Shown here: one piece after another, positions 17,742 through 18,018 of the stretch
How positions within the stretch are numbered: the first letter of the stretch is position 1
Layout of the letters: every line of letters begins with the position of its first letter
DNA from: a virus
Taxonomy: Duplodnaviria > Heunggongvirae > Uroviricota > Caudoviricetes
Virus record (IMG/VR): IMGVR_UViG_2671180724_000020
Direction: 5' to 3' (one strand)
Length of the DNA stretch: 20,469 bases
Made by a program: the position numbers and the translations under genes
The notes under the pieces: generated by a model
Database searches by the model: none
Told to the model about the DNA's origin: nothing
The model's input: only the letters and a program-made list of their open reading frames with translations

Positions 17742-17872
17742 GCTAAACCTTAGTATGCTAATAATTTCTTATGGGGCTTATTTTTATATGGCTTTAATTT
17801 AGCAAAAAAAATTACCGCGGTCCGCAAATTTTATCTTAATCTGTTAAGAGTGGTTACTTCGCCACACAGCTT

Positions 17873-17897
17873 AAACCCGCCGTCGAGCGGTTTTTTG
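17873..17897 (+). terminator. Plus-strand rho-independent terminator-like hairpin (candidate tR' analogue)
   Basis: CCCGC, loop CGTCGA, GCGG, followed by TTTTTT. Located in the intergenic region between the cassette and the next plus-strand genes. Confidence 0.4.
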
Positions 17898-18018
17898 TAC
17901 CTGTAAACTTGGTGCAGTACAGTAAACACGCTGGTGGTCGTGAATACTGACTTTTTATCTTGCTGGCTTTTTAGACAAGAGTTATTGGTATGTCATGTTA
18001 ACCAGAAGGGAAAAAGAC

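Follow-up and report, generated by a model that had tools for sequence, protein, structure and literature searches.

We analysed a 20,469-nucleotide stretch of Caudoviricetes DNA (IMG/VR virus record IMGVR_UViG_2671180724_000020; hereafter, the window), in which the gene for a small Q antiterminator (15967-16329) is followed on the same strand, about 1.5 kb downstream, by what is very probably its cognate late-gene control unit, at 17804-17897. The unit appears to be a Q-dependent late promoter (PR') of the H-19B/933W type, with a dyad of its own, and to be split from Q by a cargo slot. The homology of the segment to a mapped late promoter, the positions of its elements, the covariation of its dyad with the type of Q protein and the diversity of the cargo were all observed directly.

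The preliminary description of this DNA had reported a terminator-like hairpin with a T6 run at 17873-17897, which is present at exactly that place, in a spacer (17742-17994) with no plus-strand gene immediately upstream, as is indeed the case: the spacer lies between a minus-strand gene at 16800-17741 and a plus-strand open reading frame (ORF) at 17995-18222. Its proposal that the spacer holds a unit composed of PR', a Q site (qut) and the terminator tR' is borne out by homology to the mapped PR' of Sakai and by a core found throughout the family, but is less secure for tR', given that the homologous hairpin of Sakai is not its mapped tR'.

The probable late promoter and its predicted start site

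The late-promoter units of phages H-19B and VT2-Sakai have a homologue in segment 17804-17897. For Sakai, differential RNA sequencing (dRNA-seq), which mapped the start of PR' in each of the two Stx phages, and Term-seq yielded a PR' start at 1,266,203 and a tR' 3' end at 1,266,460, a spacing of 258 nt (Sy et al. 2020, PMC7547250). Directly 3' of Q, both H-19B and VT2-Sakai carry the sequence TTTACGATCGTAAAAATCTGCA-TATCAT-GA-TAAGAGTGGTTACATTGCCAC...CCCGCCGATGCGCGGGTTTTTTT, and 258 nt counted upstream from the final T in the T run of the Sakai tR' (positions 2709-2714 of locus L085) lead to the A of TAAG-A-GTGG, 7 nt after TATCAT; another 3' end within or just after this T run would move the start by only a few bases. 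The corresponding sequence of the window is TAATCT-GT-TAAGAGTGGTTACTTCGCCAC, and its alignment to Sakai thus identifies 17837-17842 as the -10 element and A17849 as the predicted transcription start. When the 258-nt Sakai transcript was compared with the window using blastn, nucleotides 1-54 matched 17849-17901 with 80% identity, with no alignment beyond, so that the alignment begins exactly where the dRNA-seq start site implies. The -10 element TAATCT, aligned with TATCAT of H-19B and Sakai, conforms to the pattern TAnnnT that is kept in about 60 distinct loci. We infer from these matches that PR' is active as a promoter in this phage.

The predicted start is enclosed by the block GTTAAGAGTGGT, identical in H-19B, Sakai, DLP12, phiP27, Stx1_EH1995 and the group-A loci described below. 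Within this block, AAGAGT at -3 to +3 has the key positions of a -10 element, A at position 2 and T at position 6, and is followed by a discriminator-like GG. AAGAGT+GG is invariant at -3 to +5, as are T+3, G+5 and T+6, with G+4 nearly so. Sigma-dependent pause elements (SDPEs) have been described as a -10-like plus a discriminator-like sequence, which AAGAGT+GG fits, and the loading complex of Q21 was built with an 11-nt RNA; that AAGAGT would capture polymerase carrying about 10 nt of RNA is plausible, and no more than that. Upstream, the A-tract at -45 to -38 forms the left edge of the block that is conserved across all cargo types and, judging from its position and composition, is a candidate proximal UP element.

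Downstream of the start, the first 17 nt of the leader are conserved almost as strongly as the promoter, under a constraint that may act on either RNA or DNA. A 5' stem-loop is predicted there (-6.3 kcal/mol, z = -3.2) and in most relatives; in both of two registers no compensatory (double) changes were found, and the 85% of alignment cells that were paired did not exceed the shuffle control. Pair counts thus give no support to this stem-loop, and we do not claim it as a proven RNA structure. Columns 7 and 14 of one leader alignment (A2) co-vary (T/C versus C/A), shifting the register of the predicted stem-loop.

Conservation of the core and composition of the spacer

To trace the unit, we used the 80 closest IMG/VR relatives of the Q of the window (76-100% protein identity). 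In 76 of the 80, segment 17801-17873 is found downstream of Q, on the same strand and once each. The composite motif GCGGTCCGC-N11-TANNNTGNTAAGAGTGG (37 nt) occurs once in the window, at 17817-17853, and in none of 100 shuffles, and the exact motif is present once each, on the Q strand, in the loci of 61 of the 80 relatives as well as in phage SfIV. The conserved blocks follow one another in the order A-tract (-45 to -38), dyad (-32 to -24), AT-rich stretch, TAnnnT (-12 to -7) and G-N-TAAGAGTGGT over the start. More broadly, the core (17841-17896) was found in 2412 of 5426 complete E. coli genomes, K-12 included, and is unannotated in most of the records that we looked at.

Megablast searches of the spacer against phage records returned a nested set of matches. 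Phage cdtI, deposited as a complete genome, matches the whole spacer and has the same order of Q, cassette, spacer and methylase at 98-100% identity; there, the 75-aa ORF and the methylase gene are followed by holin, lysin and Rz, that is, by late genes downstream on the same strand. In PhiR5_1, 1720a-02 and PPyecE_EH1910, the match extends from 17801 on, and in PhiR5_1 the matching sequence begins directly at the stop codon of Q. For Stx2c phages and Q82-type phages (mEp460, Ayreon), it does not begin until 17874, so that the late module at 17874-17994 is common to phages with unrelated Q proteins. Judged by these nested matches, the spacer is tripartite: 17742-17800 goes with the cassette, 17801-17873 travels with this type of Q, and 17874-17994 belongs to the late module. 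In the cassette-free phages PhiR5_1, Stx2_EH1846 (where the 75-aa ORF and methylase are followed by tRNAs and stx2), H-19B and APSE-3, the core either overlaps the stop codon of Q or starts 0-25 bp beyond it. This agrees with the earlier suggestion that a cassette of roughly 1.4 kb separates the unit from Q, the intervening DNA measuring 1.39 kb.

Q subgroups and the candidate Q site

The Q protein of the window matches PF06530 over the full length of the family (1-118/118, E = 4.5e-52, Pfam), weakly matches the solved Q21 structures 6p18/6jnx (Q21 is 24% identical) and is 47-49% identical to the Q proteins of H-19B, VT2-Sakai and DLP12. Five Q subgroups, mutually 44-59% identical, diverge most in the segment aligned with the region past residue 99 of Q21. 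To these five subgroups correspond five different dyads, all centred near -28, with the -10 register, the start block and the leader being shared. The dyad of group A, GCGGTCCGC, is invariant or nearly so in the loci of this group and is found in the window, PhiR5_1, Stx2_EH1846, SfIV and, at 58% identity, APSE-3 of Hamiltonella; Stx1_EH1995 carries GCGTACGC and phiP27 GGAATTCC, and the dyads of group B are TTTACGATCGTAAA (H-19B, Sakai), TTTACGTACGTAAA (DLP12, ev243) and TTTACAATCGTAAA (PhiR40_1). Because the sequence of the dyad covaries with the Q subgroup at a fixed position, it is likely to be the Q-binding element (QBE, or qut) of the unit; it also occupies the same interval between -35 and -10 as the curated QBE of phage 21.

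On the minus strand, the dyad and the A-tract together score as a terminator-like motif at 17815-17827 (TTGCGGACCGCGG TAATTTTTTT). This motif could insulate the cargo from antisense transcription, or may be a mere consequence of the dyad adjoining an A-tract.

The candidate terminator

The hairpin past the predicted start consists of a CCGC/GCGG stem (17877-17890), lengthened by AAA/UUU pairs, and a T run at 17891-17896, placing a candidate intrinsic terminator at +25 to +49, before the late genes. Its fold (-8 kcal/mol, z = -1.3 against shuffles) is unremarkable by itself, and the terminator-like sites in 15900-18500 numbered three, with 1.9 expected from shuffles. It is homology, not fold statistics, that argues for a real terminator, and the record of phage Ayreon annotates the same hairpin as 'terminator'. 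Applied to 49 leaders aligned with MAFFT, RNAalifold found no more than a stem of four pairs, one of them compensatory; since the hairpins of the subfamilies are out of register in this alignment, each sequence was folded separately. A hairpin of -5 kcal/mol or below with a T run follows the composite motif in 43 of the 58 distinct sequences, made up of 33 different stems, suggesting that the candidate tR' is conserved as a structure and not as a sequence. Rfam returned no leader RNA family at the gathering threshold over the whole window and nothing above noise at E <= 5 in 17700-18400; a minus-strand match to STnc130 (23 bits, against a gathering score of 55) was discarded as noise.

The homology with Q82-type and Stx2c phages begins at 17874, the first base of the hairpin, and Ayreon contains the tR' hairpin twice, at 1813-1856 and 2492-2530, bracketing a two-ORF insert downstream of its Q82-type PR'. 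Because of this repetition, and because the homology starts precisely there, it is apparently at tR' that Q/PR' modules and late modules are joined by recombination. Further downstream, 11 nt in the GCTGGCTTTTT region (17961-17971) are identical to nt 247-257 of the Sakai transcript, in the 3' half of its tR'. Reading of the upstream sequence revealed no complementary 5' arm, and the match may be a remnant or due to chance.

Proposed mechanism and alternative explanations

The unit would operate as follows. PR' would be a sigma-70 promoter lacking a -35 match, with an A-tract at -45 to -38, a -10 element TAATCT and a start at A17849. The AAGAGT-GG sequence across the start would recapture sigma region 2 once about 10 nt of RNA had been made, causing the polymerase to pause, and Q, bound to the dyad GCGGTCCGC at -32 to -24, would load onto the paused enzyme. 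Without Q, a transcript of about 48 nt would end at the hairpin and T6 run, and with Q, the polymerase would read through into the 75-aa ORF, the methylase gene, the tRNAs and the late genes. Such a unit normally abuts the Q stop codon; here, the 1.39-kb low-GC cassette lies between the two and would be transcribed on the opposite strand from a promoter of its own (candidate -10 at 17796-17801), back to back with PR', its transcription ending at a bidirectional terminator shared with Q. In this scheme, we infer that Q binds the dyad, which sequence acts as pause element and how efficient the terminator is. Since Q is diffusible and recognises a site on DNA, a separation of 1.5 kb should not stop it from acting. 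The arrangement is likely to be viable, because the complete cdtI genome has an identical arrangement together with holin, lysin and Rz, and because 25 complete E. coli genomes carry the same cassette in this arrangement. E. coli fS25a (NZ_CM176579) is 100% identical to the window over 16250-17900.

Several observations weigh against this interpretation. A consensus scan of 15900-18500 found no sigma-70 promoter in 17742-17872, in line with the preliminary description, whose author could see no convincing -35 and -10 hexamers by eye: the -10 element TAATCT matches the consensus at 3 of 6 positions, and the -35 position, occupied by the dyad, is unmatched. Basal activity of PR' could be low. 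The candidate pause element overlaps the start (-3 to +3), whereas the SDPE starts at +1 in lambda and spans +2 to +8 in phage 21, and a dyad of 9 bp is short for two helix-turn-helix protomers, with Q21 itself using direct repeats. The stem of the candidate tR' is weak, having four G-C pairs besides its modest folding energy and z-score, and is one G short of that in most relatives (GAGCGG-TTTTTT versus GAGCGGGTTTT). Sakai lysogens make a 258-nt RNA, the polymerase passing a stronger, homologous first hairpin and stopping at +258 (PMC7547250); by analogy, the candidate tR' may be a partial terminator. The terminator scan of 15900-18500 detected no second terminator before the ORF at 17995, so that lysogens may show some basal expression of the 75-aa ORF, methylase and tRNAs.

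Some of these weaknesses, namely a -10 element with 3 of 6 positions, the missing -35 and a terminator minus one G at -8 kcal/mol, would also suit a decayed relic, in which the insertion had uncoupled Q from PR' and left the unit dead in this prophage, and the 20.5-kb contig has no lysis or structural genes in view. We nevertheless consider decay improbable. About 60 distinct loci, with at least 20 different cargos among them, retain the dyad, TAnnnT and the start block, and this conservation points to purifying selection. In the complete cdtI genome, the sequence recurs at 98-100% identity and the lysis genes 3' of it are intact. Throughout group A, moreover, TAnnnT is typically accompanied by a poor -35, so that this combination is no defect peculiar to the copy in the window.

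Still less credible is a PR'/qut site inside the 3' end of Q, with 16331-16354 as the real tR', Q-modified polymerase running antisense through the cassette and 17804-17897 serving only as a second terminator region. The hairpin at 16331-16354 is a strong plus-strand terminator (-13 kcal/mol), and upstream promoter elements overlap the last Q codons in H-19B and APSE-3, but the 3' end of Q and the 23-bp gap beyond it contain neither the TAnnnT-G-N-TAAGAGTGG motif nor a dyad, the sole match in the window being at 17817-17853. Moreover, the hairpin after Q changes with the type of cargo, and therefore belongs to the cargo module and not to Q, and it is 17804-17853 that aligns base for base with the mapped Sakai promoter, -10 and start included. 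The preliminary description had recognised that a PR' immediately after Q would speak against its proposal; this location is excluded, because the gap is filled by the bidirectional terminator and the window holds no second copy of the motif.

That the block mainly serves the cargo, either by controlling or insulating the divergent cargo promoter from a shared upstream position or by anchoring recombination when cassettes are exchanged, is suggested by the position of cargo start codons only about 57-260 bp from the core, by the terminator-like reading of the dyad and A-tract on the minus strand and by the fact that the block is the constant right border of the variable region, but is just as hard to credit, given that the block is present, and active as PR', in cargo-free phages such as H-19B and Sakai, that the dyad follows the Q subgroup and not the cargo type, and that the block is always oriented as Q is.

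The cassette and the cargo slot

The cassette differs from its flanks in GC content (0.30-0.40 versus 0.50-0.58 in the GC profile). It begins 23 bp after the Q stop codon, and this whole gap is filled by the bidirectional terminator, which has perfect 10-nt inverted arms (16331-16340 and 16345-16354) and folds with -13.0 kcal/mol on the plus strand and -13.4 kcal/mol on the minus strand (z = -3.2 and -4.0, respectively). At the opposite border, the minus strand carries an extended -10, TGcTAAATT (17804 to 17796), a candidate cargo promoter that stands back to back with PR' and precedes the ATG at 17741 by about 55 nt; TAAATT preceded by TG is retained in 75%-diverged versions of the cassette. 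PADLOC returned no match for either cassette protein, the DUF6731 protein or its membrane-like partner. A relationship of the DUF6731 protein to PDC-S42-like cargo was considered and rejected, as BLASTP found no similarity.

In the 76 relatives, the gap between Q and the core is occupied by 0.7-2.7 kb of cargo with a GC content of 0.32-0.44, belonging to at least 20 types, with ORFs falling into 27 clusters; in 70 of these 76 cargo loci, every ORF of at least 60 aa is on the minus strand. The cargo matches include KAP NTPase/PDC-S20 (E = 1.5e-176), PDC-S42, TIR-TM (E = 3.3e-58), HNH effector/PDC-M68A, NYN and an SDH-type ClpP-like protease. Hence, many unrelated cargos, some matching defence families, occupy one position between conserved flanks, as in a prophage defence or moron hotspot. 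The cassette is bordered by neither direct nor terminal inverted repeats and shows no transposon signature, so that the most economical reading is an exchange of cassettes through recombination in the conserved sequences on either side. Since Q and PR' abut in phage 21, H-19B and APSE-3, their separation is probably the derived state.

The same split layout is found in DLP12, ev243 (with ompC), PhiR40_1, Stx1_EH1995 and SfIV, and in phiP27 the interval from Q to the core holds a GIY-YIG gene on the plus strand. In the Stx1a phage Stx1_EH1995 (locus L096), three minus-strand genes (3379-5486) lie between Q and the core (5520-5640), which is located about 490 bp upstream of stx1A; toxin transcription would start about 2.2 kb from Q. 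The toxin cassettes of APSE were rejected as instances of the same hotspot: the core of APSE-3 is at the Q stop codon, and the toxin genes lie downstream of the core, as stx does. A literature search on a lambdoid Q hotspot returned nothing specific.

A more speculative extension, to which we attach low confidence, is that prophages reserve the Q-PR' junction for the swapping of defence cassettes and that this site is tied into the switch between lysis and lysogeny. Antiterminated early transcription running through Q and Q on the dyad would together silence the cassette at induction, by collision or occlusion, and the dyads would define at least five orthogonal Q/QBE classes within one promoter chassis. 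The candidate cassette promoter would share the A-tract and dyad region with PR'. If this were so, the silencing of the cassette as the late genes are switched on would protect the phage from its own defence genes.

Features of the locus

The features around the spacer are collected in Table 1. Past the predicted late promoter, the window, which is IMG/VR contig UViG_2703719389_000013, contains the 75-aa ORF, the methylase gene, the tRNAs and a TerB-domain ORF, and then ends; no lysis or structural genes are in view in its 20.5 kb. The TerB-domain ORF (167 aa, 19802-20305, plus strand; PF05099, E = 6.8e-16) lies 3' of tRNA-Met and tRNA-Arg, a position that is occupied by stx2 in Stx phages sharing the methylase-tRNA module. 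In another part of the window, Rfam matches at the gathering level were obtained on the plus strand for isrK (58.7 bits, 10632-10708) and C4 antisense RNA (78.8 bits, 10733-10820), inside or beside the ORF at 10575-11237. This region looks like an antisense immunity (ant-control) module of the P1/P7 type, in the early region of a lambdoid prophage.

Table 1. Coordinates of the probable late-promoter unit, the cassette and the neighbouring genes in the window
Feature	Position	Strand	Basis
DUF968/HNH gene	14954-15949	+	
Gene for the Q antiterminator (120 aa; group A among the small Q proteins of the Q21 superfamily)	15967-16329	+	PF06530
Bidirectional intrinsic terminator common to Q (+) and cassette (-)	16331-16354	both	inverted arms, folding
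Inserted cargo cassette	16353-17741	-	two ORFs, low GC
147-aa cassette protein, membrane-like by sequence	16353-16796	-	
313-aa DUF6731 cassette protein	16800-17741	-	Pfam DUF6731
Spacer between the DUF6731 gene (-) and the 75-aa ORF (+)	17742-17994		
Cargo-specific leader and candidate cargo promoter	17742-17803	-	common only to loci with the same cassette
A-tract, -45 to -38 of PR', candidate proximal UP element	17804-17811	+	alignments; position and composition
Dyad GCGGTCCGC, -32 to -24, candidate Q-binding element (qut/QBE)	17817-17825	+	conservation, covariation with Q subgroup
-10 element TAATCT of PR'	17837-17842	+	alignment with TATCAT of H-19B and Sakai
Invariant block GTTAAGAGTGGT, spanning the predicted start A17849	17843-17854	+	identity across relatives
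Candidate sigma-dependent pause element AAGAGT+GG	17846-17853	+	-10-like sequence
Predicted 5' stem-loop of the leader RNA, GUGGU/GCCAC, +2 to +17	17850-17865	+	folding
Terminator-like hairpin and T6 run, +25 to +49, candidate tR'	17873-17897	+	folding, homology
Late operon, first transcribed part	17898-19704	+	ORF, Pfam and tRNA calls
Late-operon leader	17898-17994	+	
75-aa ORF	17995-18222	+	
N6/N4 DNA methyltransferase	18373-19431	+	
tRNA-Met	19472-19547	+	
tRNA-Arg	19628-19704	+	

Significance

The core itself is very common and is a member of a known promoter type; for the cargo slot and the Q/dyad specificity classes, we could not find a description in the literature searched. PR', its start and the candidate dyad make up a simple annotation signature for the late promoters of many lambdoid prophages, including those in which Q and the promoter are kilobases apart, and in Stx phages such as Stx1_EH1995 this signature shows the likely start of toxin transcription. 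The covariation of dyad and Q translates into testable specificity classes of the small Q proteins, which are controllers of Shiga-toxin expression, and the variable slot between Q and PR' offers a practical place to seek prophage-borne defence genes.

Comparison with known systems

The cargo slot resembles the defence hotspots of P2-like phages and P4-like satellites (Rousset et al. 2022, PMC9122126) in its fixed position and its many alternative low-GC cargos, several of which match known or candidate defence proteins (PDC-S20, PDC-S42, TIR-TM, HNH effector). It differs from them in phage family and position, being placed between an antiterminator gene and its target promoter; the cassette of the window has no PADLOC match. 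A counterpart of the split layout is prophage DLP12 of E. coli K-12 (quuD, nmpC::IS5, essD), which has Q, a minus-strand porin moron, a dyad, a -10 element, TAAGAGTGGTTACTTCGTCAC, a hairpin and a holin gene in the same arrangement, and of which phage ev243, with ompC, is an intact version. The Q of DLP12 is of group B, its dyad is TTTACGTACGTAAA and its cargo is a porin, whereas the cargo of the window is the DUF6731 pair. The unit of DLP12, unannotated between nmpC and essD (4690-4780 of locus L093; NC_000913.3, about 577,190-577,280), comprises dyad TTTACGTACGTAAA, -10 TATGCT, TAAGAGTGGTTACTTCGTCAC and a hairpin, with a predicted start at 577,229; a literature search on quuD, essD and nmpC found no description of this block as a late promoter.

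Among the closest known systems, PR'-tR' of H-19B, 933W and VT2-Sakai (the StxS locus of PMC7547250) is the counterpart of the unit itself. The Q proteins are of the same Pfam family and 47-48% identical, the -10 register is the same, no difference is seen in the start region TAAGAGTGGTTAC or the GCCAC motif, and the first hairpin with its T run is homologous, with 80% identity over +1 to +54. The differences are that the dyad of the window is GCGGTCCGC and theirs TTTACGATCGTAAA, that its -10 is weaker (TAATCT versus TATCAT) and lacks their TTTACG -35, and that their unit abuts Q and that of the window lies 1.5 kb away. The window has no homologue of +55 to +258 of Sakai, and hence neither the StxS small RNA nor the second terminator: of the 258-nt PR' transcript, the 3' 74 nt of which are StxS ending at tR', only nucleotides 1-54 have a homologue here.

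The preliminary description had pointed to phage 21/82-type Q proteins for comparison. The general geometry is indeed that of phage 21 (Yin et al. 2019; OL657228), with a Q of the same superfamily (PF06530), a Q site (a candidate one in the window) between -35 and -10, a TAAG-type pause element (likewise a candidate here) beside the start, a terminator ending near +50 and tRNA genes before the lysis genes, but the unit is of the H-19B/933W type instead. The curated features of phage 21 are a QBE at -27 to -12, the SDPE TAAGCTG at +2 to +8 and a terminator up to +50 (OL657228). Q21 is only 24% identical, phage 21 has a consensus TTGACA -35, its QBE consists of two 8-bp direct repeats (ATTGAGCA, AATGAGCA) whereas the window has a 9-bp dyad at -32 to -24, and its SDPE follows the start whereas the candidate pause element of the window lies across it.

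With the PR'-qut-tR' unit of lambda, source of the 6S RNA, the predicted unit of the window would share its logic: the promoter is constitutive and contains the Q site, the polymerase pauses close to it in a sigma-dependent manner, a short RNA is terminated, and Q brings about read-through to the late genes. The terminated RNA from PR' of lambda is 194 nt long. The Q of lambda belongs to an unrelated protein family, and its pause is at +16/+17, with an SDPE that begins at +1 (third position at +3), whereas the candidate pause element of the window begins upstream of the start.

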